From: Isurus oxyrinchus
Lineage: Eukaryota
NCBI GenBank assembly: GCA_026770705.1
Contig: JANJGN010000027.1
Coordinates: 25,544,001 to 25,608,000, forward strand
Reading direction: 5' to 3'
Length of the DNA stretch: 64,000 nucleotides
Part shown: positions 1-59,074 of the stretch, piece after piece
Layout of the letters: each line of letters begins with the position of its first letter
Numbering within the stretch: position 1 is the first letter of the stretch
Notes under the pieces: generated by a model
Databases searched by the model: none
The model's input: only the letters and a program-made list of their open reading frames with translations
Told to the model about the DNA's origin: nothing
Position numbers and translations under genes: made by a program

Positions 1-492
1 TAGATCTCTCTCCAGCAGCAAATTGTATTTTTCCAATGCCTGAGGCTGTGTAAAGTAAATGGGAAATGTAAAATGAAAGGTTTATCCGCTGGGAGTTTTG
101 AAAAAGATTAGTGTTTCAGATAGAAACGCAGGCTCTGTGTTTGGAACCAAATTGAATAGATGCTGCTTCTCAGTGCTTCATGTGACTAACCTTCCACTTC
201 CACAGAACATACAGGAAAGCATTCACTCCCCCCTTTGATAAGTCCTGGTATTTGCACATTGTTAGCTGAACCCTAGATGTGCTCCTGAGGGACATTATAG
301 TAATTCCCTACAATGTTTTCTCTTGTATTTGTTTTGTTGCTTTTATCATCTGTACATTGGAGATGGGCTGGGAGTAAAGGTTGTTCACACCCACTGGATT
401 CAGACATAACAGCTGTGTTTATTTTGCTGGCTTCAGTCCTCTCCCTACAATTGGCAAAGCTTTGCAATTCATTGAGGAACAAAGGGTAGCTT

Positions 493-598: not shown

Positions 599-1848
599 CG
601 CAGATGGGAAGAGGCAAGGCCCAGGACCAAAGTAGATGCTCAAGAGCAGAGGAGATAGTGGAATGTGGAGTACGGAGTAACCCAGAGGGAGAGCAACAGA
701 GACTAGCTGACTGACTGACTGGAGAAGAAATAGGGGGAGGTTGAAACTATCATGTGAGGCAAGATGGAGGAATCAGAAGTAGGCCATTTCTTCTGGTTCC
801 ATGCTGTTTGTATACACGTTTCTCTCCTTTATTTCCTTTCACCAGCTCCTGTTATTTCCTTTTCTGCAGAAGTCCTGATTTTCTAACTCAATGACTGTGT
901 TGTAGAAGGTAGTTTGTGTGTTTGCTGCGCCAATATCCAGCGTCTTATTGCATTATCTTCACTGAGGTCCCTCATCAAACTGCCTCCCAGCAAATGCAGA
1001 TAAAACAGCGAAGAACCAGGATTGGCCAAGACTACTTTATGACTGATTTAATTATCCAATACCCATTCAAAATTCTTTATAATGTTAAAAGCCACTTAAT
1101 GTAGAGAAGCCACAGATCACCTGGAGTGTATTAAAGGCACGAAACACACTCCAGGGGTTTGGATTGTTTGAGGGTCTGACCTGTAGGAGTGTGAAATGAT
1201 GCACGATGATGTCGTGCGAGCGGCCCAACATCTTCACACACTCGCGCGATATTTCACTCGGCGGGCACACGCGGGAGTTGGAGCCGCGCCTGCAGGTTAA
1301 TCAAGGGGCCAGTTATACGGCCCTCGACAACCCAACCGACGGTGATTTAACGCAGATCATGCGATGTTTTTGCTCGTCACATGGGCACAACAGGCAGGCA
1401 GGCTGCTCATGGTTTGCAAAATCCTCACCCATGGTCAGCAGCACCGCCAGTGTGAGCAGTGAGCAATTTGGGAGATAGTTTGCTGCCGGTGACTTATTGA
1501 TACTTGGCAGCTTCAGCTCTGTTCAGGGCTTCGTTCTTAGCATTTCCAGACATCATTTCAGGTCTCATTGGTGTCCTCCAGCCTCTCGGAGGATTGAGAC
1601 CGTGTGGACCCCTCCAGGTATCGGACAGCTGCCTTTGCCCTGGTAATGGGGATTGTGGTCTCCACTGGAGGCACCTCCTCTGAGGAGGAAGAGAGGGGCA
1701 GAAGGGAGAGGAGGCCAGGTGTCCCATTGCTGCCTCCAGGGGAGGGACCTGTGGGAGGAGAGGCGCAGGCACAAGGGGCACAGGGCCAGCAGGAAGCCCA
1801 AGGCTGAAGGGGTCGCTGAAGATGCCACTATCCTGCGGTGGTGATGAC

Positions 1849-2161
1849 ATCCTGCCATCCATTCTTAATTAGTACATTCGTTTAGATAATATCAGCACCT
1901 TCAACACCTTTGTGTTCTTTTGTTCTTTTGTCTGTGACATCGTTTGATGATCTGCTCCTATCACTGCTTGCTTGTCTCTACAACCACACCCCCCCCCACT
2001 TCTCTCCCCCTACCCACCCCCCACCTTAAACCAGCTTATATTTCACCCCTCTCCTATTTTACTCAGTTCTGTCGAAGGGTCATGAGGACTCGAAACGTCA
2101 ACTTTCTTCTTCTCCGCCGATGCTGCCAGACTTGCTGAGTTTTTCCAGGTAATTCTGTTTT
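1849..2161 (+). mobile_element. Penelope-like element 3' terminal fragment
   Basis: Near-identical to 50481-50763, the 3' region downstream of a GIY-YIG ORF. Confidence 0.88.
2065..2103 (+). ncRNA. Minimal type I hammerhead ribozyme motif (PLE-associated, variant core)
   Basis: Stem I AGTT/AACT, core CTGTCGA-A, stem II GGGTC-atgag-GACTC, GAAA, palindromic ACGT, putative cleavage after GTC (2099). Confidence 0.7.
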
Positions 2162-3954
2162 CGTTGAGGCCAGCCAGGCTGAGTGAGCCAGAGGCTTCGC
2201 AGCGATTGCTGGGTCCCCCGTGTCCAGGGTGCTATAGACTGCACACATGTGGCCATCAAGGCACCAGCGGGTCCGCCGGGTGCCTTCGTCAACAGGAAGA
2301 GATTCCACTCCATGAACGTGCAGATAGTGTGTGACCACAGGATGCAGATTCTGCAAGTCTGCGCAAGGTACCCAGGCAGCTCCCATGACGCTTACACCCT
2401 GAGACACTCCCAGGTGCTGAGACTCTTCAGCTCCAGCTTGACTGGATGGGTAGCTGCTGGGTGACAAGGGGTATCGCCTCAAAGGGGGGCTCATGACGCC
2501 TCTCCGCCACCAAGAATGGAGACAGAGCAGCGTTACAATAGGAGCCACGCCTCCACAAGGGCAATGATAGAGAGGACCATAGGTCTTCACAAGATGCGCT
2601 TTAGATGCCTGGACCGTTCAGGGGGCGGACTCTAATACCCCCCAGATCATGTGTCACTGATAGTGGTTGCAGTGCTGCACTTTCCACAATCTGGCACTGG
2701 CAAGGGGGGAGCCACTGGAGGAAGAGGGTGATGGTGCAGCTGCACAGGCCCCAGATGATGAGTTCAGTAGTGAGTTAGAAGAGGGGCACGGTGAGGAGAA
2801 CGCTGAGGGCACAGACAGAGCCAGACCTCAGTAACCTCCAGGGAGGCAGGGACACCAGGGACACCCTGATCCAACGCTCCTTCAGCTAGGCTGCCAAATA
2901 AGAACTACCACCTCATGTCAGGGCTGCTGCTTCTATCATGGATCATAGAAATGATCCTTTCCTTGGCCCCCAAGAAACACTCAGTGCCTGTGCAATACAG
3001 TTTTGAGTCACCCACGTCCAGCATTACACACTGGCCTACCCTACAGCTACAAAATAAATGAAGCATACTCAGGCCAATAGCACAAAAGCAAATGTAATTT
3101 TATGTTGGAACTCACATAGTATTGAACGGAACAATAATGTCATATCATTAAAAAAAAGAAAAACAAAATGAGAGGAACAAAAGAATACCCATGATCAGTC
3201 CCTTTTGTGCTTAAGGTGTTTTAAACTTATGTTTAGGGATGTTATGTCTAGGTGCTCCCTCCTCGCTGGCACCGGTATTGGAGCCAGCCTGCTGACCCTG
3301 CCATCTTGTTGGCCTCGATGACCTTGGTGGTCATCCTCTGGCCCGTGGAGCCTGTGCTGCCCCCACCTGGGAGGGCATGTCCAGTGCCATGCCTGGCATC
3401 TCTCCACCCGACACAGCCTCATCAGATTTGACGGTCACTGGCAGAGGGGCGGAGGAGCTGCTGCCATCATTCAGGGCGCCCAGAGAGGAGCTGGCAGAGG
3501 TGACAAGCTGCTCGTGTGCCAACGTGAGGTCGCTCTGAACCTCCCTGCTCGCCAACGATGGACGGGCAGCTAGCTGGGATACTGGGTGCCCAATCCATCT
3601 CCCACACTGACACTGACCAGCTGAGCTCAGTGGCTGTGTTAGGGCTTGCAGGTCCGAGTGCAACACCAGGAACCCCTGATTCTATCCCTGGAGCTGCCTC
3701 TCCACGAGAGTCACCAGTCTCTCCACGGAGGAGGCAGTGCGCTCGGCCATGAGGGTCAACACAGTGCTCACGCTCCTCAGGGTCTCCTCCACAATGGAGA
3801 CCACGGCACCCAGACCCTCATGGATTTCCGCCAGATCCTCCCGCACATCTATAACATAAAAGCAAAATACTGCGGATGCTGGAAATCTGAAACAAAAACA
3901 GAAAATGCTGGAAAAACCCAGCAGGTCTGACAGCGTCGGTGGAGAGGGAAACAG

Positions 3955-3993
3955 AGTTAACGTTTTGAGTCGGTATGACTCTTCCTCAGAGCT
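3955..3993 (-). ncRNA. Hammerhead ribozyme motif (decayed)
   Basis: Reverse complement AGCT-CTGAGGA-A-GAGTC-atacc-GACTC-AAAA-CGTT-AACT. The CUGANGA core is canonical, but GAAA is mutated to AAAA. Confidence 0.6.
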
Positions 3994-4454
3994 GGAGAGA
4001 AGTGGAAATGTGATGAAACTTATACTGTTTAAGGGGGTTGGGGCAGGTAAAGTTGGATAAAGGGCCAGCGATAGGTGGGACAAAGAAGAGATTGACAAAG
4101 GTGTCATGAACAAAAGGACAGAGGGAGTGTTAATCATACTGGTTCGTGCTAAAAAAGGTGCTGATAGTGGCAAAGGTAAGAATGCAGAATGTGATAGTAG
4201 CAAAGCAAGGGTAAGAATTCCATGAAAGAACAACATGGAACAAATGGGGTGGCGGTGGGGAAATAAAGGATAGGAAACGGGATAGAAGGGGGGATTTAAA
4301 AAGGGGATAAAACCACAGATAAATAAATAAAAATAAAAATAAGTGGATAAAAAGTAAAAATGAATGTAGAGAAAAGGAGATTGACAAAAGGGGGTGAGGA
4401 TGGAGGAGAGAGCTCATGGTCTGAAGCTGTTGCACTCAATGTTAAATCTGGAAG

Positions 4455-4748
4455 GAATCCCACCAGGGCAGGTGGTGAAATTTGAATTCAATAAAAATCC
4501 GGAATTAAAGTCTGATGATGATCATGAAACTGTTATTGATTGTTGTAAAAACCCATCGGGTTCACTAATGTCCTTTAGGGAAGGAAATCCACCGTCCTTC
4601 CCTGCTCTGGCCTACATGTGACTCCAGACCCACAGCAGTATGGTTGACTCTTAAATGCCCTCTGAACAAAGGCAATTAGGTACGGGCAATAAATGATTGG
4701 CCTAGCCAGCGATGTCCGCATCCCATGAACGAATAATAAAAAAAAACA
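4455..4748 (+). mobile_element. tRNA-derived SINE, family B (5'-truncated), nested in the PLE
   Basis: Homologous to 58672-59074. It ends in ...GGCCTAGCCAGCGATGTCCGCATCCCATGAACGAATAATAAAAAAAA. Confidence 0.85.
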
Positions 4749-7209
4749 TGTCTAGTCGGAAGATGAGGTGTTGTTCCTCCAGTTTGCGTTGGGCTTCACT
4801 GGAACAATGCAGCAAGCCAAGGACAGACATGTGGGCATGAGAGCAGGGTGGAGTGTTGAAATGGCAAGCGACAGGGAGGTCTGGGTCATGCTTACAGACA
4901 GACCGAAGGTGTTCTGCAAAGCGGTCACCCAGCCTGCATTTGGTCTCTCCAATGTAGAGGAGACCGCATTGGGAGCAGTGAATGCAGTAGACTAAACTGA
5001 GGGAAGTGCAAGTGAAATGCTGCTTCACTTGAAAGGAGTGTTTGGGCCCTTGGACGGTGAGGAGGGAGGAGGTAAAGGGGCAGGTGTTGCACCTTTTGCG
5101 ATTGCCTGGGAAGGTGCCATATAAAGGGGCTGAGGTGGTGAGGAGTGAACCAGGGTGTCCCAGAGGGAACGGCCCCTATGGAGTGCTGACGGGGGGTGAA
5201 GGGAAGATGTGTTTGGTGGTGGCATCATGCTGGAGTTGGCGGAAATGGAGGAGGCTGATCCTTTGAATGCAGAGGCTGGTGAGGTGAAACACGCATCTCT
5301 CACACACACACAAACACACATCTCCCACACATCTCACTGGACATCCAGCATCTTCTGCCTAATGGACAACTGCAGGGGCCCATCATCAGCCTTCAACTGA
5401 GCATTGTCCTGGTGTTCAGCCATCCTCCGACTGCCGGCACCCTGGGTACTCTCTGACTCCGCCTGCACCTTGAGCGGGTGTGAAGTGCCCTCACTAATGT
5501 GCACCGAGATACTAGCTGCTGAACTAATGCCCAGCGAGGTCCTGGTATCTGCACTGGTGTCTGCTTTAGAGAGCGGATGTGACGCAAGTGCTTGGGGAGC
5601 ATGGTGGTCCTCCGAGGTCAGGGTTAGCTCCTGGGGGTCCTACGCTTTGCTGCTTGGTGGTAGATCTAAGGGAGAACAAGGACGTGTCATTAGTTTAAGC
5701 CATCACACTGTCACTGTGCATGCCAAGTACCCTGGCTAGACAATGGAGATCTGCATTATGGTGCCACCGTCTTTCAATGATCAATGAGGAATCCAGTCTG
5801 GAGGCTCCCATCAATGAAGGGACTGCACAAGAATGTTTGAACCATCCTAAACTCTCACCTCAGTGCACTGCGCTCTGACCTTTGTCTGACACCCCAGCCC
5901 CTCTGCGGCCAGTTGACCGAGGCACATGATGCCTCTCCAGCTCCAAGGCCTCCTGCTAGTACAGGGAGAGGATGAGGAGGTGTCCGCGAGCTTTCAATGT
6001 TGTTATGGCTTGTCTTCTCCTGAAAGGACAGAGGAGCATTGATCAGTCCCCTCTCTACCTGCAGCACCATTGCAGCCTGGCCAACCCCAGCTGAGGAGCA
6101 CCTTGTAGGGCAAATCCGAGTCATGGCCCTCGAGCCACAAGGCACTCAGTCTAAGCAGCCAGTGCTCACCCCCTTGGCCAGTTCCAGCGTCATTGACAGT
6201 TGGCACTCAGACTCTAACACCCCTGAGCTCCACGGGAGGTTGGGGGGGGGGTGCTGCGAGGGGTGTGTGTGTGTGTGTGTTGGTGGGGGGTGGTCAGCCC
6301 AAAACAATTCGACACACTGACCCATGCCGACACGGCACTCACCCTTCCTGAGTGCAGCAGGTCATTGAACCACACCCACGTGCACCGCACCATGCCATGG
6401 CTGCTCACCCAGGCTGCCAACTCCTCCCATTGCCATCTTGGCGAGGTGCAGTGACCTCCTCCTCCCATCTCTATGGACAAGGGTGTTCCTTCTGGCAGTC
6501 AGCTCCTGCAGCAGTGCAGGGAGGCACACGTCAGAAAAACACCGAGGGGGGGGGGGGGGTCGTTGCTGAGCATCCAGTCGACCTCACCTCCCTCCTGGTC
6601 TCTGCATCGTTGTTTGCAGCCATGTCCCAGCCACAGCTCCGACATGGGAAGCCTCCCTGGAGCTGTCTGTGCCGTTAGTGAAATGGTCACCGGGTCGCCA
6701 TTGGACCCAGCGGACAGCAGGCCCCCCCACACCCCCCCCCCCCCCAACCCCCCCCCACCCCCCCCCCCCACCCTTTCTCGGACCTTCGGCAGCCAGAGTT
6801 CACACTGGGCAGACCTTAACTGGCCCGCCAGCATGAAACCGGTCACTCCCGCTTGCCCCCACCGAACCCACCCAACGAGGGCAAAATTCTGCCCTGAGTG
6901 TTTGCAGAATTTCAGTGACATTGGTAAAGATGCTCGAGTGCCAGTTTCAGTCTCCTGTGTGAGATTGGGGGAGGAGTTGCTGAAATCCTTATTGCAACAA
7001 TCACAATTCATTACAATAATTTGTTTCAATAAATAATGAATTACATTAATTAATTACAATAATCAAATGATGATGCGCCAATGTCCCAGTGGTTGATTCG
7101 GGTGTCTTAAGCATTAAGGGCTGATTATTTCAGCTAAACTCATCTTTCTCATTTTGGAACTGCCCATCTCATTCCCATTGGGAGTGAAAGTGAGATTTCC
7201 CATGTCAAT

Positions 7210-7890
7210 GAACTGTTTCTCCTACACCGATTATTCCTTGTGATTCTCCTGCTAGTTTTAGATTTCTGTATACCCAGATCTGTATACTTCTCTACTCCAA
7301 TTAGTGCAATCAATGTGTTACTGTTACTAATTTTAGATCTCTGTATACCCAGATCTGTATGCTTCTCTACTCCAATTAGTGCAATCAATGTGTTACTGTT
7401 ACTAATTTTAGATCTCTGTATACCCAGATCTGTATGCTTCTCTACTCCAATTAGTGCAATCAATGTGTTATTGTTACTAATTTTAGATCTCTATATACCC
7501 AGATCTGTATACTTCTCTACTCCAATTAGTGCAATCTGTGTGTTACTGTTACTAGTTTTAGATCTCTGTATACCCAGATCTGTATACTTCTCTACTCCAA
7601 TTAGTGCAATCTGTGTGTTACTGTTACTAGTTTTAGATCTCTGTATACCCAGATCTGTATACTTCTTTACTCCAATTAATGCAATCAATGTGTTATTGTT
7701 ACTAGTTTTAGATCTCTGTATACCTGGATCTGTATACTTCTCTACTCCAATTAGTTTTACACTTTTCAAGGAATAAGTGATCTTCCTCTGAACCAGCGTA
7801 CACTTTGCTCTATTGAATTTCATCTTCCATTTATCCACTTACTCTACAAACCTATTTGCTTCTTTCTGGATTTTTCTCCAGTCCCCTCCC
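7210..7890 (-). mobile_element. Old CR1 LINE ORF2 fragment containing a tandem amplification
   Basis: DKWKMKFNRAKC and GVEKYTDLGI match the CR1 W(Q/K)MKFNxxKC and E(K/R)DLGV motifs. Confidence 0.7.
7250..7755. repeat. Minisatellite, 75-bp unit, about 6.7 copies
   Basis: Unit TTAGATCTCTGTATACCCAGATCTGTATACTTCTCTACTCCAATTAGTGCAATCAATGTGTTACTGTTACTA(A/G)TT. The ORF track shows 25-aa periodicity. Confidence 0.95.
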
Positions 7891-10535: not shown

Positions 10536-11611
10536 ACTTCATTGTTTCCAGAAACGAAGTGGCTTCCTAACTACACCCACATATTCCAAGAGAGCAGTCA
10601 GCCGATGGGTCCCAATGCTTTGATCTATAACATAACTGAACTATAGATGACATAATTTCTCCCAATCCACATGTACAAAGGACATATATATAATGTATAA
10701 AGACTTGGATATTATAGATGTTAAACCATTCTCAACGAAATTGGACACACTCACTTGTTACAATAAGGCCATTCAAGATTGACCCCACAACCTTTCCAAT
10801 TGTTAACAGCTTTTATCTCTTAATTTGTTATAAGTTTAATCTAGTTTAGTAACTAATAAAGCAAATACTCTGTGCCAGGTTCCCTTCCTCTAATCTTTCA
10901 GCTCTAAAGATTGAATCCAATATAAATTACTTGGGAAACATGTCTTTTTGGAGAAAACAAGCCACTTCAAAGTATCGGGTGAGTGTTTACAGTAGTAAAC
11001 ACAATGATGTGTTCAATTTTAGAAAGTGCTACTGGGTACAATGGCCTTTCAGCAAGAGGTTATAGCGCAGTTATCGGCTGCTAAATCCTTGATGCATAAG
11101 TGGATGTACCAATCATTCATTGATTACATTTTTTTTAAATGTCTCCGTTCTTGGAGTGAAGCAGCGCGGAGTGTCTTCCTCAAAGTGGGTTCTTTGGATC
11201 TTCCCAATACATGGAGCTGTTGATTGAAGAGGTGAATAGTTGTGCCCAGGCTATTGAACGGGGGTGGGGGTGGGGCAAGAATGAGTGTGATAGTGAAACT
11301 AATCGCAACCACGTTTAAACTCAGATCTCCGAAATGTAAGGGAAACAACAGGCCCATCTCCTTGGACGATAAGTGTTGTGTTTGTTCTAATAGATGCTGC
11401 ATTTGTTGTTAGAGGAATACCCACTGACACATTGCCCTGACTGACTGCTCCTTCAATCAGCAGACGATGCAAAGTCATGAACCTTCAGTGAGAAATTTCA
11501 GAACTGCACCCCCACAGGATGGTGAACATGTGAAAGATGCCCAGAGCTGAGGGTCCTTTAGGACCAATAGGCAGGTTTTAAAATGACTTGGATCCTCATG
11601 GTTAAATTATA

Positions 11612-12910
11612 ACAGAATAGGTGGCCATTCAGCCCGTTCTTTTCCTGTCAGCTGTCTCAGAGTGAGTCCCACTCTCCTGTCAGCTGTCTCAGAGCGAGTC
11701 CCACTCTCCTGTCTCAGAGCGAGTCCCATTCTCCTGTCTCAGAGTGAGTCCCACTCTCCTGTCTCAGAGCGAGTCCCACTCTCCTGTCTCAGAGCGAGTC
11801 CCACTCTCCTGTCTCAGAGCGAGTCCCACTCTCCTGTCCCAGAGCGAGTCCCACTCTCCTGTCCCAGAGCGAGTCCCACTCTCCTGTCTCAGAGCGAGTC
11901 CCACTCTCCTGTCACAGAGCGAGTCCCACTCTCCTGTCTCAGAGCGAGTCCCACTCTCCTGTCTCAGAGCGAGTCTCACTCTCCTGTCTCAGAGTGAGTC
12001 CCACTCTCCTGTCTCAGAGCGAGTCCCACTCTCCTGTCTCAGAGCGAGTCCCACTCTCCTTTGTCGGAGCGAGTCCCACTCTCCTGTCTCAGAGCGAGTC
12101 CCACTCTCCTGTCTCAGAGTGAGTCCCACTCTCCTGTCTCAGAGCGAGTCCCACTCTCCTGTCTCAGAGCGAGTCTCATTCTCCTGTCTCAGAGCGAGTC
12201 CCACTCTCCTGTCACAGAGCGAGTCCCACTCTCCTGTCTCAGAGCGAGTCCCACTCTCCTGTCTCAGAGCGAGTCCCACTCTCCTGTCTCAGAGCGAGTC
12301 CCACTCTCCTGTCTCAGAGCGAGTCCCACTCTCCTGTCTCAGAGCGAGTCCCACTCTCCTGTCTCAGAGCGAGTCCCACTCTCCTGTCTCAGAGCGAGTC
12401 CCACTCTCCTGTCTCAGAGCGAGTCCCACTCTCCTGTCTCAGACCGAGTCCCACTCTCCTGTCTCAGAGCGAGTCCCACTCTCCTGTCTCAGAGCGAGTC
12501 CCACTCTCCTGCTTTCTCCCTGCAGCCATTCCTCTCTTTTTGAATAATTATCCAATTCCTTTTTGAATGCTGCAATTGAACCTGCCCTTGGCCCACTCTC
12601 CGGCTGCAGGTTCCGGATCCTAACCGCTCACCGCATTTAAAACAAAGTTTATCCTCATTATCACCATTGCCTCTTTTGCCAATCATCTTAACTTGGTGTC
12701 CACTGATTGTCAATCTTTCCACCAATGGGAGCACTTACTCCCTATCTACTCCCTCCAGGCCCCTCGTGATTTTGGACACCTCTGTAAGATCTCCTCTCAA
12801 CCTTGACCTCCAAGGAAAAGAGTCTAATGTCTCCTCATGTAACTGAAGCCCCTCCTCCCTGGGAGCAGCCTTGTAAATCTTTTCTGCACTCTCACCAATG
12901 TCTTCACATT
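11612..12910 (-). mobile_element. CR1 LINE 3' fragment split by a minisatellite
   Basis: Tail GGCCATTCAGCCC at about 11623. The sequence resumes at 12512 with the CR1-type end of ORF2 (LPLVERLTISGHQVKMIGKR on the minus strand). Confidence 0.75.
11654..12511. repeat. Minisatellite, 25-bp unit, about 34 copies
   Basis: Highly homogeneous unit GTCTCAGAGCGAGTCCCACTCTCCT. Confidence 0.97.
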
Positions 12911-20975: not shown

Positions 20976-21540
20976 GCGATGTAGTGGTAATATTACTGAA
21001 CTAGTAATCCAGAGGCCCGGGCTAATGCTCTGGGGTCTTGGGTTCAAATCTCACCACGGCAGCTGGTGGAATTTAAATTCAATTAATAAATTTGGAATTG
21101 AGAACCAGTCTCAGTAAGGGTGACCATGAAACTATCACTGTAGCAAAAACCCATCTAGTTCACTAGTGTCCTTTGGGGAAGGACATCTGCCATGCTTGGC
21201 AGCATCGGCGGAGAAGAAAAGAGTTGACGTTTCGAGTCCTCATGACCCTTCAGGACTCGAAACGTCAACTCTTTTCTTCTCCGCCGATGCTGCCAGACCT
21301 GCTGAGTTTTTCCAGGTAATTCTGTTTTTGTTTTGGATTTCCAGCATCCGCAGTTTTCTTTGTTTTTATATCTGCCATGCTTACCTGGTTTGGACTACAT
21401 TTGATCCCAGACCTGTCGCAAGGTGGTTGACACTTAACTGTCCTCTAAAATGACCTAGCAAGCCACTCAGCTCAAGAGCCAGTGGCGGGTGGGCAAGAAA
21501 TGATGGCCTTGCCAGGAATGCCCACATCCCATAAAAAACA
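20976..21540 (+). mobile_element. tRNA-derived SINE, family B, interrupted by a PLE mini-insertion
   Basis: GTAGTGGTAAT..ACTAGTAATCCAGAGG, B box GGTTCAAATC, tail GGCCTTGCCAGGAATGCCCACATCCCAT. Confidence 0.88.
21198..21369 (+). mobile_element. 172-bp fold-back Penelope mini-insertion with perfect 13-bp TSD
   Basis: TSD ATCTGCCATGCTT at 21185-21197 and 21370-21382. An inverted arm (21198-21251) is joined to a forward PLE terminus (21252-21369). Confidence 0.93.
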
Positions 21541-30654: not shown

Positions 30655-32690
30655 ATGGAATCGGGTGCGGCTGGAGACCCCAGGCGACAGAGGGCAGGTC
30701 GGGTGGGCACTCGGCCCCCTGCTTTTCGGATGAGCGCCTCGCGGTCCTCCTGGAGGAGGCGGCTGCCAGGAGGGACACCCTTGTCCCCAGAGAAGGGAGG
30801 AGGAGGCCTCCGCACCTCACCAAGAGGGCATGGGAGGAGGTGGCAGCTCTGGTTAGCAGCCATGATGTTGTGCGGCACACCTGGGTCCAGTGCCGCAAGA
30901 GGTTCAATGACCTGCTGTGCTCAGGAAGGGTGAGTGCCATGTTGGCATGGGTCAGTGTGCAGAAGTGTTAAGGTGTGGCCTTCCCCCTGTGGGCCTCAGA
31001 GGTGTCAAAGTCTGAGTGCCAACTGTCAATGACGCCGGAGCTGGCCAGGGAAGGTGTGCCCTGGCTGCTTGGACTGAGGGCCTTGCAGCTTGAGGGCCAC
31101 GATTCGGATGTGCCATGTGAGGTGTAGCTCAGCTGGAGTTGGCAAGGCTGCAATGGCGCTCAGGTACACAGCGGACTAATCAATGCTCCTCTGTCCTTTC
31201 AGGAGAGGACGAGCCACAGTCAAGCAAAGAGGGCACATATAGGCGGAGACCACCCACCCACCCCACAACCCACCCACCCCCCCCACCCCCTCCCCACCCC
31301 ACCCCCCCAAACCTCCCCCCCCACCCCACCCCCCCCACACCTCCCCCCCATCCCACCCCCCCCCCACCACCCACCCACCCCCCCACCACCCACCCACCAC
31401 CCCCAACCCCATCCCCCACCCCACCCCCAACCTCCTGCGGTTCAGCAGGTTTGAGCAGGACATCCTTGAGCTGGAGAGATGGCACATGTACAACCGGGAG
31501 TGGAGAGACAGGGGTGTCAGAGGAAGGTAAAGGCACAGTGCACAGAGGTGAGAGTTTTGGATTGTGCCACCATTCTAGTGCAGCCTCTTCATTGATGGGA
31601 GCCTCAAACCTGGAGAACCCCATTGATCATTGAAAGCTGAGGGCAGATCTCCACTGTCTCACCAGGGTGCCTGGCCTGTACAGTGACAGTGTAATGACTT
31701 TAACTAATGACATGTCCTTGTTCTCCATTTTAGATTCACCAGCTCACACTCACTGTTTGGACCCCGAAGGACCACCCCTGCTGCCGGACGACCACCGGAC
31801 TTCATTTGCACCTGCGTCACAGCCTCTCTCTGAAGCAGGCACCAGCGCAGATACCAGCATCTCGGTGGGCATTAGATGCTTGGCTAGAATGTCAGTGCAC
31901 ATTGATGAGGGCACTTCCCACTCACTTGAGGTGCAGGCGGAGGCAGAGAGTGCCCAGGACTCTGGCAGTCAGAGCACGGCTGGAGACCTGGACTATGTTC
32001 AGCTGAAGGCGGATGATGAGCCTCTGGAGTCGTCCATTAGGCAGCAGATGCTGGATGTCCAGCGGGATGTGTGGGAGGATCTGGCAAAGATCCATGAGGG
32101 TCTGGGTGCCATGGTCTCCATTGTGAAGGAGTCCATGCAGAGTGTGACCACTGTGTTGACCCTCATGGTCGAGCACACTGCCTCCTCCATTGAGAGAGTG
32201 GTGACTCTCATGGAGAGGCAGCTCCAGGGACAGAACCAGGGGTCCCTGGGGATGCACCAGGGGGCACACAGGCAATGACCTCAGGTGGTCAGTGTCCATA
32301 TGGGAGATGGATGAGGCACCCAGTATCCCAGTTAGGTGCCCATCCATCAATGGTGAGCAGGGTGGTCCAGAATGACTTCACGTTGGTGCACAAGCTGCTT
32401 CTCGTCTCTGTGGGCTCCTCTCAGGGCGCTCTGGATGATGGCAGCAGCTCCTCTGCCAGTGACCATCACATCTGATAAGGCTGCGATGACTGGGGAGATG
32501 CCAGGCGTGGCACTGGCCACTCCCTCCCAGGAGGGGCCAGCACAGGTTCCACTGGCCAGAGAATTACTGCCAAGGTCATCAAGGCCAACAAGACAGCAGG
32601 GTCAGCAGCTGTCTCTGATGCTGGTGCCAGTGAGGGGCAAGGGCACCAGAATGTAGCACTCGGAAATGTAAATTAAAGGCACCATGAGCA
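30655..32690 (+). pseudogene. Harbinger Myb/SANT-like gene; exons about 30655-30929, 31203-31548, 31734-32690
   Basis: FSDERLAVLLEE...KRAWEEVAALVSSHDVVRHTWVQCRKRFNDL (Myb/SANT-like trihelix). Donors are GTGAG, acceptors are TTTCAG and TTTAG. It has frameshifts. Confidence 0.85.
31248..31432. repeat. C-rich (CCCA)n-like low-complexity expansion
   Basis: About 185 bp of C runs interrupted by A, absent from the homologous exon in copy 1. Confidence 0.9.
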
Positions 32691-32992
32691 CAAGAGGGAC
32701 AGGTCACGGGTGATTTTCTGTTCATTTATGTTTGGTTTATCTTTACTGGTCTGGGAATGAAGACTGGAGAAGATTATGTACATTTTTTTGGGTTGTCAAA
32801 ATGAGATCAATTTTGTTTTTGTTGTAATGACCTGAGTCTGTTTTGCCTTTTTCTTCCTGGTGCAGGGTATGCCTGTATGTAATGCTGGACATGGGTGGGG
32901 AGTGGACTTTGGGATCAAAGGTAAGAGTCCTTTCAGACACCAGGGATGGAGGCAGCAGCCCTGGCATGAGGTTTAAGCTGATCTTTGGCAGC

Positions 32993-34168
32993 CTAGCTGA
33001 AGGAGCGTTGGATCAGGGTATCCCTGGTGTCCCTGCCTCCCTGGAGGTTACCGAAGTCTGGCTCTGTCTGTGCCCTCAGCATTCTCCTCACCATGCTCCT
33101 CTTCTGACACTACTGGATTCATCCTCTGGGGCCTGTGGAGCTGCGTCAAGATCCTCTTCCTCCAGTGGCTCCCCCCTTTGCCAGTGCCAGATTGTGAAGA
33201 GTGCAGCATGTAACCACTATCAGTGACACCCACTCTGGGTCTTATGGTCCTCTCTACCACTGCCCTTGTGGCTCCTACTGTAACGCTGCTCTGCCCCTGT
33301 TCTTGGGTGGCAGAGAGGCATCATGAGCCACCTCTTCAATGGATAACCCTTGTCACCCAGCAGCCATCCATCCAGATGAGCTGGAGCACTGAGGAGCCTC
33401 AGCACCTGGGAGAGTCTCAGGATGTTAAGCGTCATGGGAGGTGCCAAGGTACCTTGCGCAGACTTGCAGAATCTGCATCCTGTGGTCACACATTATCTGC
33501 ACGTTCATGGAGTGGAATCCCTTCCTGTTGACAAAGGCACCCGGCTGACCTCCTGGTGCCTTGATGGCCACATGTGTACAGTCTATAGCCCCCTGGACAT
33601 GGGGGAACCCAGCAATCGCTGCAAAGCCTCTGGCTCACTCAGCCTGGCTGGCCTCGTCTGTATGATAAAGAATAAAGGTCAGTACCTGCCTGAACAGATC
33701 TTCTGTCACCAGCTTCACACAACTGTGGACAGCTGATTGGGAGACTCCACACAGATCTCCCACCGAGCCCTGGAAAGAGCCAGAGGCAGAGAAGTTGAGG
33801 GCCACTGTGACCTTCAGAGCCACTGACATGGGGTGTCCACCCACACAGTTGGAGCTGATCTCAGGCCCAATCGTCTGACAGATGGAGGTCCCTGTCTCCC
33901 TGGAGAGGCAGACCCTCCTTTGGCATTGCACCTCAGACTTATTGAGTTAGCTGCATCACTGCCTGTAAACCCTGGCAGCGGGATAGTGGCGTCTTCTGCA
34001 GCCCCTTCTGTCCTCAACTTCCTGCTGGCCCTGCGCCCCTTGTGCCTGAGCCTCTCCTCCCACAGGTCCCTCCCCTGGAGGCTGCCTAGGGACACCTGGC
34101 CGCATCCCCTTTCTGGCCCTCTCTTTCTCCTCAGAGGAGTTGCCACCAGCGGAGACCACAATCCCCAT
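32993..34168 (-). pseudogene. Harbinger DDE transposase, disrupted
   Basis: MSVALKVTVALNFSASGSFQGSVGDLCGVSQSAVHSCV (HTH region), IDCTHVAIK, GWLLGDKGYPLKRWLMMP. It has frameshifts and an internal deletion. Confidence 0.92.
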
Positions 34169-34671
34169 TACTAGGGTAACGGGAGGCTGTCTGATATCTG
34201 GAAGGGTCCACATGGTCTGAATCCTCCGGGGGTCTTGGAGACACCAATGAGTCCTGAAATGATGCCTGGAAATGCTAACAATGAAGCCCTGAACAGAGAT
34301 GAAGCTGCCAAGTACCAATAAGCAACCAGCAGCAAGTGGTGTAGCAAACTCCCCACTACTGACACTGGCAATGCTGCCCGTGGATGAGGTATTTTAAGAT
34401 GTCGCTGGCCACCTGCCCTTTTAGCCTGTGCAACCATCACAAAATCGGGCGGGCGACAAAAAAATCGGCGTCAATTTGCTTTTTAATGACCTTAAGTGGC
34501 CTCTTAATTAATGGCGGGCGCAGCTTCCAACTCCCACTCGAGCCCTCCCACCGGAATATCACGCAAGTGCCCGGTGACACTGGGATGCTCTCCCAACATC
34601 ATCGCTCGCTGTTCTACACCCGATTGGATCGGGCACACGCCCGCCCACACACAGGATGTAATATTCTGCTC

Positions 34672-34753
34672 TTTAGCTCTGAAGGAGGGTCTTATGGACT
34701 CGAAAGGTTAACTCTGTTTTTCTCCCTCCACAGATTCTGCCAGACCTGCTGAG
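34672..34753 (+). mobile_element. Continuation of the PLE 3' end with hammerhead motif, running into the gap
   Basis: AGCT-CTGAAGG-A-GGGTC-ttatg-GACTC-GAAA-GGTT-AACT followed by the PLE terminus. Confidence 0.85.
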
Positions 34754-34960
34754 NNNNNNNNNNNNNNNNNNNNNNNNNNNNNNNNNNNNNNNNNNNNNNN
34801 NNNNNNNNNNNNNNNNNNNNNNNNNNNNNNNNNNNNNNNNNNNNNNNNNNNNNNNNNNNNNNNNNNNNNNNNNNNNNNNNNNNNNNNNNNNNNNNNNNNN
34901 NNNNNNNNNNNNNNNNNNNNNNNNNNNNNNNNNNNNNNNNNNNNNNNNNNNNNNNNNNNN
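34754..34960. other. Assembly gap (N run)
   Basis: Run of N. Confidence 1.
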
Positions 34961-42140: not shown

Positions 42141-44083
42141 TAAAAATTTTGGCCCAGTTTAACTGTATTTTCTTAAACCAATTCCTTCCCAGTGAAACTT
42201 TGTTCCCTTCTACCACAACCAATGGCAAGTAATAGGCTGCATCATTATATTCCACTCTAACACTAACTTCACCTAGCAATAGATTATTGTTATTGGAATT
42301 TCATTATTTTGCATTAGAGAATGTGATTTCGGGACTTCTTGTGCTCTCCTTCCAACAAACTCTAATGCAGCTGGATCAAAGATGAAGGTAAGTTGTGAAT
42401 CTCCAACTTTCGTTTTTATTGTGGGTGTTGGAATTATATCTTCGGCCCTTTTACTTTCATCTTCCAAGTGCTGTTTTTCTTGCTTTTTGAGTACAACTCT
42501 TGATCTTCCTTCTCGATAGCATCAACTTCGGTTTCCACAACTATGATATGGACATTGGAGAATTTCCAGACTCCCAAACTAGCTTTAGATTGACCACGAC
42601 CTTGACCTGGTACATTGCTGTGACCTGGAGCTTTACCATGGCCAAGAACATTACTGTTTCCTCGACTCCTGCGTGCCTTCTGGATATGATCAATTTTCTC
42701 ACAGACGTAGCACTTTGACTGGAAATGAGGACATTGAGGTGGATGGTGGTTACCATGGCAAAAGTAGCACCTACGTTTCTGACTCTGAGACTGTGACCCT
42801 GGCTGCTGGGGCCTGGGTCTTGCTGAAATCCAGCGGATCTTTTCTGCCGGCTCAGGAAGGAATTTGCATCTATCTCATTCTGCGGTTTCCATGGATGTGG
42901 CCACATCACAAGGGCTTCTTCTATGTCAGCTTATTGTCTTTGCTGGCCTGGGTTTTATTGTTCTTCAGGCCTCCCATGAACATGTTTCTAAGGTCAGTTT
43001 CTATGTTTGCGCCATACCCACTGTGACGAGAGTTACTTTAATTTGAGAAGAAAATCTGCAACAGTCTCACTTGGCAACAGCTTCCTTCGATGGAACGTAA
43101 CTCGCTTTGCAATTCCATTCTCAGTCGTGCCATAATATGAGTCGAGAATCTCATTAATTTCATAGCACTGGGGTCTTGTGGGAATCATTAGGTAGACCCC
43201 GACTCAAAAGCATCTGGTCCCATCATGGTGAGGAAAACATTTACTTTACCCTCATCTCCTAGTTTATTCACTTTCAGCCAATATATAACCTTCGTTCATA
43301 ATTACATTAATCTTCCTTGTTCAAGGTTGAATTTCCCCATTGTCCCCAAATACGTCTTCACGTCATTTTGATTCTATTCATACTGTGCTGACTCAGAATT
43401 GTTCATGGACGTGACATGCACACATGAAGAATTGTTCATGAACGTGATATGTACACATGAAGAATTGTTCATGGACGTGATATGTACACATGATGAATTG
43501 TTTATGGGTGTGATATGTACACATGAAGAATTGTTCATGGGCGTGATATGTACACATGAATTGTTCATGAACATTATATGTACACATGAAGAATTGTTCA
43601 TGAACATTATATGTACACATGAAGAATTGTTCATGAACTAAATATGTATACATGAAGAATTGTTCATGAACGTGATATGTACACATGAAGAATTGTTCAT
43701 GGACATGACATGTACACATGAAGAATTGTTCATGAACACGATATGTACACATGAAGAATTGTTCATGGACGTGACATGTACACATGAAGAATTGTTGACG
43801 GACGTGACATGTACACATGAAGAAACAATCTTTCAAATTGCTCAAACGTCCTCAAAATCAGATTTTAAAGTTCCAAAATCGCCATCATGTTCTTCAGTCT
43901 TAATTTCTCTAAAATGTAAAAAGAAATTCCATCACCAGCCTTAGGGCAATACACAACAGAAAAATGGCACTGAGAGAAGACTCGCCATGTGGACTCAGTG
44001 TTAACAGACATTATCGAACTAAACTCGTTGACACGTATTCTCAACAGAAACAGGGAGGACACCTCTGGCAATACACTACAACA
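42141..44083 (-). mobile_element. Gypsy-type LTR retrotransposon 5' half (short LTR, PBS, gag-protease remnant)
   Basis: LGEVSVRVEYN..YLPLVVVEG..LGRNWFKKIQLNW (protease C-terminus) and gag-like FLTMMGPDAF. The LTR is TGTTGTAG...CCACA (44083-43988), followed by the PBS-like TGGCGAG. Confidence 0.78.
43396..43822. repeat. Minisatellite, 33-bp unit, about 13 copies
   Basis: Unit GAATTGTTCATG(G/A)ACGTGATATGTACACATGAA. Confidence 0.95.
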
Positions 44084-44137: not shown

Positions 44138-44345
44138 CATAGAGGCTTAGCACAATAGGAGGCCATTCAGTCCATTTGTGCCTGTGCTGGCTCAATGAAA
44201 GAACTATTTGATTAGTCCCACCCCCCTGCCCTTTCCCCTACAGGGTCTGCAAATATTTCCCCTTGACATATTTATCCAACTTGTCCAATTCCCTTTTCAG
44301 AATGATGATTAAATCCAGGTTGGAAATGGAGCATGCGCCACAGTT
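44138..44345 (-). mobile_element. Short CR1 3' fragment
   Basis: AGGAGGCCATTCAG tail. KRELDKLDKYVKGKYLQ on the minus strand. Confidence 0.75.
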
Positions 44346-44356
44346 GGGAGGAAATT

Positions 44357-46820
44357 GGGGACAGTGGGCAGAGAGGACAGGGCATGGGGATAGAGCGCAG
44401 GGGTGTGGGGACAGTGGGCAGAGAGGGCAGGGCATGGGGATAGAGCGCAGGGGTGTGGGGACAGTGGGCAGAGAGGACAGGGCATGGGGATAGAGTGCAG
44501 GGGTGTGGGGACAGTGGGCAGAGAGGACAGGGCATGGGGATAGAGCGCAGGGGTGTGGGGACAGTGGGCAGAGAGGGCAGGTATGCGGGGATTCTGGGAG
44601 GGGTTGTGGGGACAGTGGACGGGGCATGAGGACAAGTGGGTGGGGGTGGGGACAATGGGGACAGTGGGTGTGGGTGGGGACAGTGGGTGTGAGTGGGGAC
44701 AGTGGGCGGGGTGTGGGGACAGTGGGTGTGAGTGGGGACAGTGGGTGTGAGTGGGGACAATGGGTGTAAGTGGGGACAGCAGGGGTGCATGAGGATAGTG
44801 GGTGGGGTGTGGGGACAGTGGGTGTGGGTGGGGACAGTGGGTGTGAGTGGGGACAGTGGGTGTGAGTGGGGACAGTGGGCGGGGTGTGGGGACAGTGGGT
44901 GTGGGTGGGAACAGTGGGTGTGAGTGGGGACAGTGGGTGTGGGTGGGGACAGTGGGTGTGAGTGGGGACAGTGGGCGGGGTGTGGGGCCAGTGGGTGTGA
45001 GTGGGGACGGTGGGTGTGAGTGGGGACAGTGGGCGGGGTGTGGGGACAGTGGGTGTGAGTGGGGACAGTGGGTGTGAGTGGGGACAGTGGGCGGGGTGTG
45101 GGGACAGTGGGTGTGGGTGGGAACAGTGGGTGTGAGTGGGGACAGTGGGTGTGGGTGGGGACAGTGGGTGTGAGTGGGGACAGGGGGTGTGGGTGGGGAC
45201 AGTGGGTGTGGGTGGGGACAGTGGGTGTGAGTGGGGACAGTGGGTGTGAGTGGGGACAGTGGGTGTGGGTGGGGACAGTGGGCGGGGTGTGGGGACAGTG
45301 GGTGTGAGTGGGGACAGTGGGTGTAAGTGGGGACAGTGGGTGTGAATGAGGACAGTGGGTGTGGGTGGGGACAGTGGGTGTGGGTGTGGGGACAGTGGGT
45401 GTGGGTGTGGGGACAGTGGGTGTGAGTGGGGACAGTGGGTGTGAGTGGGGACAGTGGGTGTGGGTGGGGATAGTGGGTGTAAGTGGGGACAGTGGGTGTG
45501 GGTGGGGACAGTGGGTGTGAGTGCGGACAGTGGGTGTGAGTGGGGACAGTGGGTGTGGGTGTGGGGACAGTGGGTGTGGGTGTGGGGACAGTGGGTGTGA
45601 GTGGGGACAGTGGGTGTGGGTGGGGACAGTGGGTGTGAGTGGGGACAGTGGGTGTGGGTGTGGGGACAGTGGGTGTGAGTGGGGACAGTGGGTGTGGGTG
45701 TGGGGACAGTGGGTGTGAATGAGGACAGTGGGTGTGGGTGGGGACAGTGGGTGTGAGTGGGGACAGTGGGTGTGAATGAGGACAGTGGGTGTGGGTGGGG
45801 ACAGTGGGTGTGAGTGGGGACAGTGGGTGTGAATGAGGACAGTGGGTGTGGGTGGGGACAGTGGGTGTGAGTGGGGACAGTGGGTGTGAGTGGGGACAGT
45901 GGGTGTGAGTGGGGACAGTGGGCGGTGTGTGGGGACAGTGGGTGTGAGTGGGGACAGTGGGTGTGGGTGGGGACAGTGGGTGTGAGTGGGGACAGTGGGT
46001 GTGAGTGGGGACAGTGGGTGTGAATGAGGACAGTGGGCGTGGGTGGGGACAGTGGGTGTGAATGAGGACAGTGGGTGTGAATGAGGACAGTGGGCGTGGG
46101 TGGGGACAGTGGGTGTGAATGAGGACAGTGGGCGTGGGTGGGGACAGTGGGTGTGAGTGGGGACAGTGGGTGTGAATGAGGACAGTGGGCGTGGGTGGGG
46201 ACAGTGGGTGTGAATGAGGACAGTGGGTGTGGGTGGGGACAGTGGGTGTGAATGAGGACAGTGGGCGTGGGTGGGGACAGTGAGTGTGAGTGGGGACAGT
46301 GGGTGTGAATGAGGACAGTGGGCGTGGGTGGGGACAGTGGGTGTGGGTGGGGACAGTGGGTGTGGGTGGGGACAGGGGGTGTGAGTGGGGACAGTGGGTG
46401 TGAATGAGGACAGTGGGCGTGGGTGGGGACAGTGGGTGTGAGTGAGGACAGTGGGTGTGAATGAGGACAGTGGGCGTGAGTGAGGACAGTGGGTGTGAAT
46501 GAGGACAGTGGGCGTGGGTGGGGACAGCAGGGGTGCATGAGGATAGTGGGCGGGGTGTGGGGACAGGGGGTGTGGGTGGGGACAGTGGGTGTGAATGAGG
46601 ACAGTGGGCGTGGGTGGGGACAGTGGGTGTGAGTGAGGACAGTGGGTGTGAATGAGGACAGTGGGCGTGAGTGAGGACAGTGGGTGTGAATGAGGACAGT
46701 GGGCGTGGGTGGGGACAGCAGGGGTGCATGAGGATAGTGGGCGGGGTGTGGGGACAGGGGGTGTGGGTGGGGACAGTGGGTGTGGGTGGGGACAGTGGGG
46801 GCAGTAGGCAGGGCATGGGG
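44357..46820. repeat. Compound G-rich minisatellite: 50-bp unit (about 4.5 copies), then about 19-bp unit (more than 100 copies)
   Basis: Units GGGGACAGTGGGCAGAGAGGACAGGGCATGGGGATAGAGCGCAGGGGTGT, then GGGGACAGTGGGTGTG(A/G)GT and variants. Confidence 0.97.
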
Positions 46821-47746
46821 GCAGTGGATAGAGTGGGCAGTTCAGTTTGTTTAATTGTGAAGTTTTAAAGTACTTGAACAGAACAGAATATCATTAATGT
46901 AAAAATTCAATACTCTACATGCTCTGCCTCAGGAAATTCACAATTTGTGGCGTCAGGCTGTGATAATTCTCACCCAGATGAATCAAGAAATATTGGTTCA
47001 AAACAGGTGTTAGACAGCTGGCTGTTCCAACGTTGTCCATATTTAGATTGAAGTTGTTGGTTACAGCATGTTGTTCTGATAAGGTTAACAGTGATTGTAA
47101 TCTCACTTTATCACCCAGTGTTCTCTCCGGACAAGCAGAAAGATACTGCTCTCAGATGAATGGTCGAGGGTTTAAAGTTGCATTCTCGGACTGCCATTTC
47201 CCCACGATTATAATCTGGCAGATCACCTCAGCTGCTGCTGCCTTTTCACAAAGACCCAGTCCACTCTAATGTTTTTCAAGGAATGTTTTCACTAAATTGA
47301 AGTGACTGTGTTGTCAATTGGGTCAAGGTTGTGCTTTAATGACAGTTCTCAGGATGGAAAGTCACTTGCTACAGACAACAGCTTCAGTCACAATCACTCC
47401 CAGGTCAGCAGAGGGCAATTGAGGATCCAAGTCAGGCTGCAACTGATCTCCCAAATATTCTACCTTAATCTCAGACTCTGAGAAGAAGCATCTACATTAC
47501 CGACACTGACATGGCCCTTTGCTCCCATCAGTTATCCTGGTGGCTTGTGAGTGGCACTGTCAAGCTGACACCCATTCAGTCCGATTCTGAATAGTTTGTG
47601 CTGTGCATTCAATGAAGTCCAGGCTGAAGGTGACCCCGAGTCCGTGTTGAGTCAGTGCACAGGAGAATCACGTCAGTCTGGCTGTACCCAGAGAGGGAAT
47701 AACAAGTGATCCTCATTGACGGCATTACTGCTAACGTGTAACAGTA

Positions 47747-47964
47747 CAATAAAAGCAAAATATTGCAGATGCTGGAAATCTGAAACAAAAACAGAAAATG
47801 CTGGAAAAACTCAGCAGGTCTAACAGCGTGCATAGAGAGAAACACAGTTAACGTTTCGAGTCCATATGACTGAAGAAGAGTCGTATGGACTCGAGACATT
47901 AACTCTGTTTCTCTCTCCACAGATGCTGTTAGACCTGCTGAGTTTTTCCAGCAGTTTCTGTTTA
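47747..47964 (-). mobile_element. 218-bp fold-back Penelope mini-insertion with 10-bp TSD
   Basis: TSD TGTAACAGTA at 47737-47746 and 47965-47974. A minus-strand PLE terminus is joined at about 47869 to a plus-strand arm starting CTGAAGAAGAGTC. Confidence 0.92.
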
Positions 47965-48396
47965 TGTAACAGTAGAGGATGTAGGCAGTCAAACGTTAGG
48001 GGAGGGAGTGGGGAAAGGATGAAGATAAAATATTACCGGGTGAGTCAGACTAACCGTCAGGAATTAGCGCTGAGACTCGGTAAACAAACATTTGCATAAT
48101 TTAGCGAATTATTTTTCATTGTGTTGAGTTTTCTCCGGTGTTTAATTGACTCCAGAGATCACGTTGACCTTTTTAAATGGAATGTTCTCATTCCCTTCAA
48201 TCATATTTACTTATTTATTCAATCATAGATATTCATTTTTGTGGCATTTTGCAAATGATCAAAGAATTGGTGAAGTCAATATGGGGAAGTTTCTAAATGC
48301 ACCTTCTGAAAACACACTTTCCCCAGGCAGTGGGCAGGGCCTCCCTGTGGAGTTCAGTCTTTGCCAAATTGCTCACAGACTTTCCACTGTTATTTG

Positions 48397-49534: not shown

Positions 49535-50806
49535 CCGGAATGAATCCCGGACCTTGTTCGGAAGCTGTAGTCGAGGTAGCTGTGGGAGTCGGTAGGCTTG
49601 TAATGGATATTGTTGGACAGTCTATCACCAGAAATTGAGACAGAGAGGTCAAGGAAGGGAAGGCCTCCCTCCCAGAAACATGATAGGGTCCCCCTTGTCC
49701 TCACTTATCACCCCACCAGTCTCCACATTCAAAGGATCATCCTCCGCCACTTTCACCAACTCCAGCATGATGCCACCACCAAACACATCTTCCCTTCACC
49801 CCCCCTATCGGCATTCCGTAGGGATCGTTCCCTCCGGGACACCCTCGTCCACTCCTCCATCACCCCCTACTCCTCAACCCCCACCTATGGCACCACCCCA
49901 TGCAAACGCAAAAGATGCACCAGCTGCCCCTTCACTTCCTCTCTCCTCACCGTCCAAGGGCCCAAACACTCCTATTAAGTGAAGCAGCATTTCACTTGCA
50001 TTTCCCCCAACTTCGTCTACTGTTTTTGTTGCTCCCAATGCAGTCTCCTCTACATTGGAGAGACCAAACGTAAACTGGGCGACCGCTTTGCAGAACACCT
50101 GTGGTCTGTCCGCAAGAATGACCCAATCCTCCCTGTCGCTTGCCATTTTAACACTCCACCCTGCTCTCTTGCCCACATGTTTGTCCTTGGCCTGCTGCAT
50201 TGTTCCAGTGAAGCCCAACGCAAACTGGAGGAACAACACCTCATCTTCCGACTAGGCACCTTACAGCCTTCCGGACTGAATATTGAATTCAACAACTTTA
50301 GATCTTGAACTCCCTCCTCCATCCCCACCCCCTTTCCATTTCTTCTCCCTCTCTTTTGTTTTTCCAATAATTTATATAGATTTTCCTTTTCCCACCTATT
50401 TCCATTATTTTTAAATCTATACCTTTTATGCCCAGTTAGTCTTATTCCACCCCACCCCCACTAGAGCTGTACCTTGAGTGTCCTGCCATCCATTCTTAAT
50501 TAGCACATTCGTTTAGATAATATCACCTTCAACACCTCTTTTGTCTGTGACATCTTTTGATTATCTGCTCCTATCACTGCTTGCTTGTCCCTACAATCAC
50601 ACCTTCCCCCACCCCCCCACCCCTGACCTTAAACCAGCTTTTATTTCACCCCTCTCCTAATTTCACTCAGTTCTGTTGAAGGGTCATGAGGACTTGAAAC
50701 GTCAACTCTTTTCTTCTCCGCCGATGCTGCCAGACCTGCTGAGTTTTTCCAGGTAATTCTGTTTTTGTTTTGGATTTCCAGCATCCGCAGTTTTTTTGTT
50801 TTTATC
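49535..50806 (+). mobile_element. Penelope-like element with inverted 5' RT fragment, GIY-YIG domain and complete 3' end
   Basis: Minus strand 49560-49663 reads LPFLDLSVSISGDRLSNNIHYKPTDSHSYLDY (PLE RT C-terminus). Plus strand reads RVPLVLTYHP...FRRDRSLRDTLV...YIGETKRKLGDRFAEH...LGTLQPSGLN. Confidence 0.94.
50669..50707 (+). ncRNA. Minimal hammerhead ribozyme motif (variant core)
   Basis: AGTT-CTGTTGA-A-GGGTC-atgag-GACTT-GAAA-CGTC-AACT. Confidence 0.68.
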
Positions 50807-58671: not shown

Positions 58672-59074
58672 GGGAGACGGCGGCATAGTGATAATGTCAC
58701 TGGACTAGTGATCCAGAGGCCCAGGCTAATGCTCTGGGGATATGAGTTAAAACCCCATGATGGCAGCTGTTGGAGTTTAAACCTCAATTCGTAAAAATTC
58801 AGCTAATTCACAAAATAACTGGAATTGAAAGCTAGTCTCAGTAATGGTGACCACGAAACTATCATTGATAAAAACTCATCTGGTTCACTGGTGCCCTTAG
58901 GGAAGGGAATCTGTCATCCTCACCTGGTTTGGACTACATGTGACTCCAGGCCCACAGTATTGTGGTTGACTCTTAACTGCCTTCTGAAATGGCCTAGCAA
59001 GACACTCAGTTTAAGGGCAATTAGGAATGGACAACCAATGCTGGCCTGGCCGTGATGCCCACACCCCATGAAAT
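58672..59074 (+). mobile_element. tRNA-derived SINE, family B, full length
   Basis: GGCATAGTGATAATGTCACTGGACTAG head, B-box-like GAGTTAAAACCC, LINE-like tail. Confidence 0.88.

Follow-up and report, generated by a model that had tools for sequence, protein, structure and literature searches.

Fold-back mini-insertions of a Penelope-like element end at the 5' edge of its hammerhead motif

Introduction

Penelope-like elements (PLEs) are the closest retrotransposon relatives of telomerase. Inverted segments between target-site duplications (TSDs) are known from L1, where in twin priming the second target strand primes internally. In the accessible text of PMC8557442 and PMC3846280, insertions of endonuclease-bearing (EN+) PLEs comprise an inverted 5'-truncated copy and an optional 30-40-bp tail, truncation is variable, and the layout is ascribed to self-priming or to endonuclease resolution. 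The layout of inverted PLE insertions is thus already published. For PAc, a Poseidon element of Anolis, PMC11167929 reports two RT start sites that bound a tail about 100-130 nt after the motif, cutting and extension of both target strands, and ribozyme cleavage that is dispensable; PAc belongs to a different clade, and the accessible text of that paper holds neither a genomic 5'-end map nor a pairing of start sites per insertion. Non-LTR retrozymes, as the accessible part of the preprint describes them (bioRxiv 10.64898/2026.07.22.740005), derive from the PLE terminus, contain a type-I hammerhead and form head-to-tail tandems with complete motifs. How PLEs finish their insertion, the tail at one end and the regeneration of the pseudo-LTR (pLTR) are treated as open questions in the accessible text of PMC2377424, PMC3846280 and PMC11167929. 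Here we describe fold-back insertions of a PLE terminus in Isurus oxyrinchus, starting from one copy in a 64,000-nt window (the whole stretch of DNA that was analysed).

Results and discussion

A fold-back insertion with two incomplete hammerhead motifs

The first-pass annotation had described a 172-bp insert with an exact 13-bp TSD that consists of a PLE terminus and an inverted copy of it, with both arms beginning inside the ribozyme motif and folding into a hairpin of about 44 bp. All of these statements held on closer analysis. Numbering the element from C3 of the hammerhead core as 0, the copy is laid out as follows.

21100..21460, + strand: host interspersed repeat, the insertion target; its alignment with 58827-58999 and 4513-4663 spans the insertion
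21185..21197, + strand: left TSD, 13 bp, same letters as 21370-21382; present singly in the paralogous host repeat at 58909
21197..21251, - strand: inverted arm, element +5..+59; its outer end falls short of the usual short end
21241..21251, + strand: unpaired 11-nt loop at the head-to-head junction
21252..21369, + strand: forward arm, element +16..+132; its 3' end is the long (tail) one
21252..21270, + strand: 3' half of a minimal type-I hammerhead motif, by comparison with the fuller copies 2065-2103 and 50669-50707
21332..21369, + strand: "tail", bounded by the short 3' end (+96..99) and the long one (+132), from the 3'-end histogram and the accessible text of PMC11167929
21370..21382, + strand: right TSD, 13 bp, matching the left one

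Since the host-repeat paralogue at 58827-58999 is unbroken over the insertion site, the 13-bp TSD is a true duplication. The stem is perfect over 44 bp from 21197/21295 inward, one pair being a TSD base, and closes on the 11-nt loop; its fold z-score was -15, and 0 of 200 shuffles were equally stable. The motif was classed as a minimal type-I hammerhead after the accessible text of PMC4209133. Neither arm holds a complete one, the 5' strand of helix I and most of the CUG core being gone: in the half-motif at 21252..21270, a cut is predicted after 21266, while the core and the helix I 5' strand are missing. We infer that the short and long 3' ends that bound the tail represent two RT start sites.

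The parent is an endonuclease-bearing PLE with two terminus families

Exact matches to the 29-nt 3' motif number 116,772 in the 4.98-Gb genome. Upstream of the same terminus lies an ORF (P0001) with hits to RVT_1 (E 1e-5) and GIY-YIG (E 0.0015), both below the Pfam curated cut-offs, in which YIDD and YIGET motifs and a CX4CxxC linker between RT and GIY-YIG are visible. Variably truncated 3' ends precede ORF-bearing copies in a partial-tandem pLTR layout, and the insertions display the EN+ hallmark of an inverted 5'-truncated copy, a one-end tail and a TSD. On the evidence of sequence, the terminus is that of an EN+ PLE. The insertions resemble those in the accessible text of PMC8557442 and PMC3846280 in the head-to-head inverted terminus, the junction palindrome, the tail on one side, the TSD and the pLTR hammerhead. 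The order of RT, CX4CxxC linker and GIY-YIG is that of the Neptune/Nematis type, defined in the accessible text of PMC8557442 by a CX2-5CxxC linker ahead of the endonuclease; by its linker, the parent is of this joint Neptune/Nematis type.

Two families of the terminus were distinguished. In family A, the hammerhead core reads CUGUCGA or CUGUUGA, not CUGANGA, in 240 of 263 copies, and in family B it is CUGAAGA in most copies. Loss of A6 is expected to impair hammerhead cleavage. The altered-core family A has more than 100,000 termini. A minimal type-I hammerhead is defined by CUGANGA and GAAA cores, helices I and II and a palindromic loop III. Of these features, the helices and GAAAC-GUC are present in the terminus; folds of the monomer gave no support for a hammerhead, as expected of such motifs, and an Rfam search returned no hammerhead match. 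Rfam hairpin look-alikes such as mir-3202 scored below gathering and were dismissed. Further features of the two families in the window are given below.

2037..2068, + strand: TATA-like box and initiator-like YCAGTT of a longer family-A copy, a putative promoter and RNA start
2069-2075, 50673-50679 and 63332-63338: family-A cores reading CUGUCGA or CUGUUGA
47737..47974, no strand assigned: second fold-back, of the older family B, with the long arm inverted (break +9), the short arm forward (break 0) and an exact 10-bp TSD

The second fold-back corresponds to the insertion at 47747, which had been singled out earlier as another subfamily broken at the same motif; with ends at +9 and 0, it is. 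Old stubs at 52033 and 8275, also said to start there, are visible by eye, though their exact ends are lost to decay; the one at 8275 was missed by the BLAST search that mapped element copies. A family-B terminus at 34670-34753 begins about 10 nt ahead of the core, and its 3' end enters the N stretch 34754-34960.

5' ends pile up at the edge of helix I

Loci for breakpoint analysis were picked on 3' features only, and neighbouring loci were included. Among 369 family-A arms with enough flank, 64 that had been selected by their junctions were set aside, leaving 305; arms close to locus edges were removed before counting, and the two arms of one inversion entered as separate counts. Breaks fell within -20..+19 in 131 of the 305 arms. 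The break hazard per nucleotide (n=305) was 0.017 at -20..-11, 0.031 at -10..-1 and 0.0125 at 0..+9, against flanking values of 0.0023-0.0028 at -100..-41 and +20..+59 and of 0.002-0.004 elsewhere nearby. The first list by itself (122 arms) gave the same profile. By exact walking, the main mode lies at -5 to -7, and lesser modes lie at -2 and 0; since the best-matching one of several haplotypes was used, an end may be extended by 1-2 nt. The 5' ends peak at -7..-4 and drop steeply upstream. Family B peaks at the same place (0.066 versus 0.003-0.008; n=99 aligned of 102 arms), and 34 of 53 plain, non-inverted inserts break in -14..+10. Genome-wide, fold-backs closing within 30 nt numbered 2,287 at the motif, 96 at the upstream control and 333 at the downstream control, counts that carry no correction for motif conservation. 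The breakpoint pile-up is real and not due to chance. A rough extrapolation (52 of 122 sampled arms applied to the 116,772 exact termini) puts the fossil products in the tens of thousands.

Taken as a population, the ends peak outside the core, immediately on its 5' side. The peak coincides with the 5' edge of helix I and lies 35 nt upstream of the predicted cut. The first-pass annotation had proposed plotting breakpoints along the consensus, taking a sharp peak no more than about 20 nt from the core as support and a smooth truncation with no peak at the hammerhead as refutation; the 305 termini show the peak. Its view of the hammerhead as a preferred end point is thereby upheld as to position within the terminus, and needs correcting in that the ends gather at the helix I edge and not at the cleavage site. 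At the predicted cut itself (+30/+31), family A had 2 ends versus 2.3 expected and family B 5 versus 1.3 (p 0.01 in a post hoc test), one of the five aligning poorly, so that the family-B excess is a weak hint of what may be occasional cleavage. Because the peak lies off the cleavage site and survives in the family whose core is altered to CUGUYGA (240 of 263 copies), the ribozyme cut is not the main cause. Farther upstream, truncation was smooth beyond -300, with no second peak among the 72 arms reaching there; a break cluster at -1212 is probably the reference edge. Four of these 72 arms break in an AT-rich AATAAA/TATATA stretch of the 3' UTR, including L029 and L059 at -344..-350.

Fold-backs pair a long with a short 3' end, probably on one RNA

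There are two 3'-end sites, +96..99 and +132, which lie about 35 nt from each other, and the target is duplicated by 12-14 bp. Among 83 inverted insertions, 72 combined a long with a short end, 7 (including the copy at 21185..21382) a long with a truncated end and 1 two short ends, 3 were ORF-bearing, and none combined two long ends. In a list not chosen for tails, long plus short was found in 24 of 25 (p 5e-7). The arm reaching farther 5' was the short one in 44 pairs and the long one in 14, with 21 ties. Pairs ending off the peak co-terminated in 12 of 19 cases (shuffled mean 1.0, maximum 6), and 9 private variants were common to both arms in 37 pairs versus 0.45 after shuffling. Co-termination off the peak and shared private variants suggest that both arms were copied from one RNA template, although gene conversion, or central deletion or trimming in palindromes, could be an alternative source of these features. 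In L1 twin priming the segments do not overlap; here, the arms copy the same stretch and end together. The sharp end peak, the lack of long-plus-long insertions and an arm order that runs against simple snap-back set these insertions apart from the accounts in the accessible text of PMC8557442 and PMC3846280. A search of freely accessible article text turned up no report of the peak, of the rule by which ends pair or of the realignment repeat described below.

The exact junction of the copy at 21185..21382 recurs at 7 loci, recurrence being a point that the first-pass annotation had asked to check. The flanks are unrelated, each locus has its own TSD and one has the long and short ends swapped. 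The 7 loci are therefore independent, and such junctions recur by microhomology and not by descent. Overall, the junctions are heterogeneous, with one form in about 12 of 100.

These observations can be assembled into the following scheme. The short and long 3' ends would mark two RT start sites from which both target strands are extended, as in the accessible text of PMC11167929. Both cDNAs would be made on one RNA, with the enzyme from the short site leading and the one from the long site following, and the peak at -7..-4 would be the transcription start, where RT runs off the RNA 5' end. The two cDNA ends would then be trimmed by 0-30 nt and joined via 1-4 nt of complementarity provided by palindromes and stems of the motif; this would be why junctions of the 21185 type lie inside the hammerhead. 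The minis would be dead-end by-products of the autonomous element. A composite at L018/L019, in which a short-site copy came off near -6, was joined to an internal ORF position, was recopied to -5 and was then followed by the inverted arm, suggests template jumping at the end.

Run-off at an RNA 5' end and its alternatives

We consider it probable, from the sequence patterns, that the minis end at the hammerhead 5' edge because the RNA begins there, RT being primed from both nicked strands at two internal sites and running off. In 115 of 127 long family-A copies, whose spacers are of several unlike kinds, a TATA-like box precedes the peak by 29-31 nt, and a TATAA box has this spacing in 7 of 7 family-B references; 29-31 nt is the usual TATA-to-start distance. 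Two points count against the promoter reading: TATATTT, as the family-A box reads, makes a weak TATA, and near-identical copies account for many of the 115. An 11-nt direct duplication at -5 was found in 18 of 100 junctions and has 247 exact copies genome-wide, six of them in one tandem cluster. It is explainable if the cDNA end re-anneals to an identical triplet (AAG) 11 nt back and copies again, and such a realignment at -5 suggests that the usable template ends at -5. The duplication is carried by the plain inserts L286, L320 and L323 and by L256, L264, L285 and others among the inverted ones. An extra G at the junction, such as a cap would leave, was seen in 17 of 37 cases versus 12 expected (p 0.055), in 23 of 63 versus 21 once junctions without a TSD were added, and in 5 of 25 plain inserts, which gives no clear sign of a cap-derived base; the raw G excess in the junction listing was due to inverted-arm and duplicated bases. 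RNA contigs cover both the terminus and the ORF; they display neither a start nor a splice joint, a result of no weight either way. In D. virilis, according to the accessible text of PMC2377424 and PMC4209133, Penelope starts about 120 nt farther upstream and helix I begins at the intron end. This difference in start position was counted against the run-off reading.

A structural or protein boundary at helix I, where a bound element protein or the folded motif limits the template or blocks 5'-to-3' decay of a longer RNA, which would thus be trimmed to this position, would account for the match of the peak to the helix I 5' strand within 1-3 nt and for the absence of a clear cap-G, and an element protein does assist the ribozyme in vitro in the accessible text of PMC11167929. 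However, RT meets the helix I 3' strand first (+31..+34), where family A has no peak, long ORF-bearing copies traverse the same structure without stopping, and the fixed TATA spacing is left unexplained, so we regard such a boundary as unlikely. Fold-backs could also stem from self-priming (snap-back), which has been put forward for rotifer Penelope, or from longer palindromes that were trimmed later as cruciforms. Such an origin would agree with arms that co-terminate and share variants and with several junctions that are perfect palindromes, and the accessible discussion in PMC3846280 also speaks for it. With snap-back of a tail-primed cDNA, however, the long arm should never stop 3' of the short one, yet it does so in 44 of 58 untied pairs, the copy at 21185..21382 among them; the same peak in plain inserts is not explained either, which makes this origin quite improbable. 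We judge it very unlikely that the peak is a 3' splice site at which the AG before the core ends an intron, as in D. virilis, and a spliced or partly spliced RNA is copied. An intron does end at the helix I 5' end in the accessible text of PMC4209133, a pyrimidine tract and YAG stand at this place in family B, and minor modes lie at -2; against this, the TSD abuts the element in plain inserts, with no common upstream exon in any of them, many ends reach -5..-7, upstream of the AG, and in the dominant family-A haplotype the AAG follows a run rich in purines.

The first-pass annotation had raised, as its second idea, the independent mobilisation of a short RNA delimited by the ribozyme, in the manner of a retrozyme or SINE. 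This proposal, extended here to a mobile fold-back master, now appears highly improbable. It draws on the junctions that recur (7 loci; one form in about 12 of 100) and on the small family-B excess at the predicted cut, which family A lacks. The main peak, however, is 35 nt from that cut, the family-A core is altered, and the recurrent junctions have unrelated flanks, their own TSDs and swapped ends and are not in tandem. Retrozymes are head-to-tail units with complete hammerheads, whereas the minis are single or head-to-head with broken motifs, the 21185 copy being head-to-head with two incomplete ones. A SINE would have its own promoter within the unit and a shared master junction; the minis end 3' of the putative TATA-like box, and their junctions are heterogeneous. 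The minis are thus a by-product of a known element class and not the undescribed mobile system that had been suspected, and annotators are warned that they are not SINEs, MITEs or microRNA hairpins. On the run-off reading, these fossil products predict, for the existing in vitro system, an RNA start at -5, one primer per site, co-terminating cDNAs and end realignment.

Long ORF-bearing copies and a possible second template

From 30 loci, 24 copies reaching more than 900 nt into the ORF were collected. They stop near the peak in 3 of 20 at risk versus 131 of 273 (p 0.0045), which implies that full-length copies were made on a different template, such as a circle or a multimeric transcript, or by way of strand transfer. 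A circular template was proposed in the accessible text of PMC4209133. Four of the 24 (L375, L377, L380 and L395) end 5' at +104..+123, between the RT start sites, and the rest end variably upstream; these four resemble the "solo ORF with 34-bp repeats" in the accessible text of PMC2377424, and their ends fit one turn (unit length) of a circular or tandem template. Of the 6 copies that end early in the ORF, 4 begin at the peak, and in L018 a copy that starts at -5 includes 900 nt of ORF, from which it follows that an ORF-containing RNA with its 5' end there existed.

It is possible, and we put it forward tentatively, that an RT-endonuclease dimer makes two copies of one RNA, each from its own fixed start site, at both target nicks; that linear RNA started from the promoter yields strong-stop cDNAs like those of retroviruses, able to realign at the end of the template in the manner of telomerase; and that a second template, circular or reached by strand transfer, is the source of full-length and pseudo-LTR-bearing copies. 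If true, this dimer and two-template reading would account at once for the inverted pLTRs, for a tail on one side alone and for how the pLTR is regenerated. A GT donor-like site at 21316 and an AG before the ORF start codon (L389 1457-1543) outline a would-be intron that holds both RT start sites. Such a GT..AG intron across the family-A tail was set aside: the donor is absent in family B, and the RNA contigs contain no joint.

Other repeats in the window

Diverged copies (78-93% alike) of a multi-kb repeat lie in opposite orientation at 1418-6541 and 30720-34395. The first is interrupted by PLE insertions at 1850-2165 and 3856-4420, and near 2200-2700 the repeat resembles what we take to be a Harbinger-type transposase. 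Tandem arrays occur at five places.

7164-7838: 75-bp units
11534-12600: 25-bp units
43329-43887: 33-bp units
44306-46300: 50/19-bp units
56289-57047: 33-bp units
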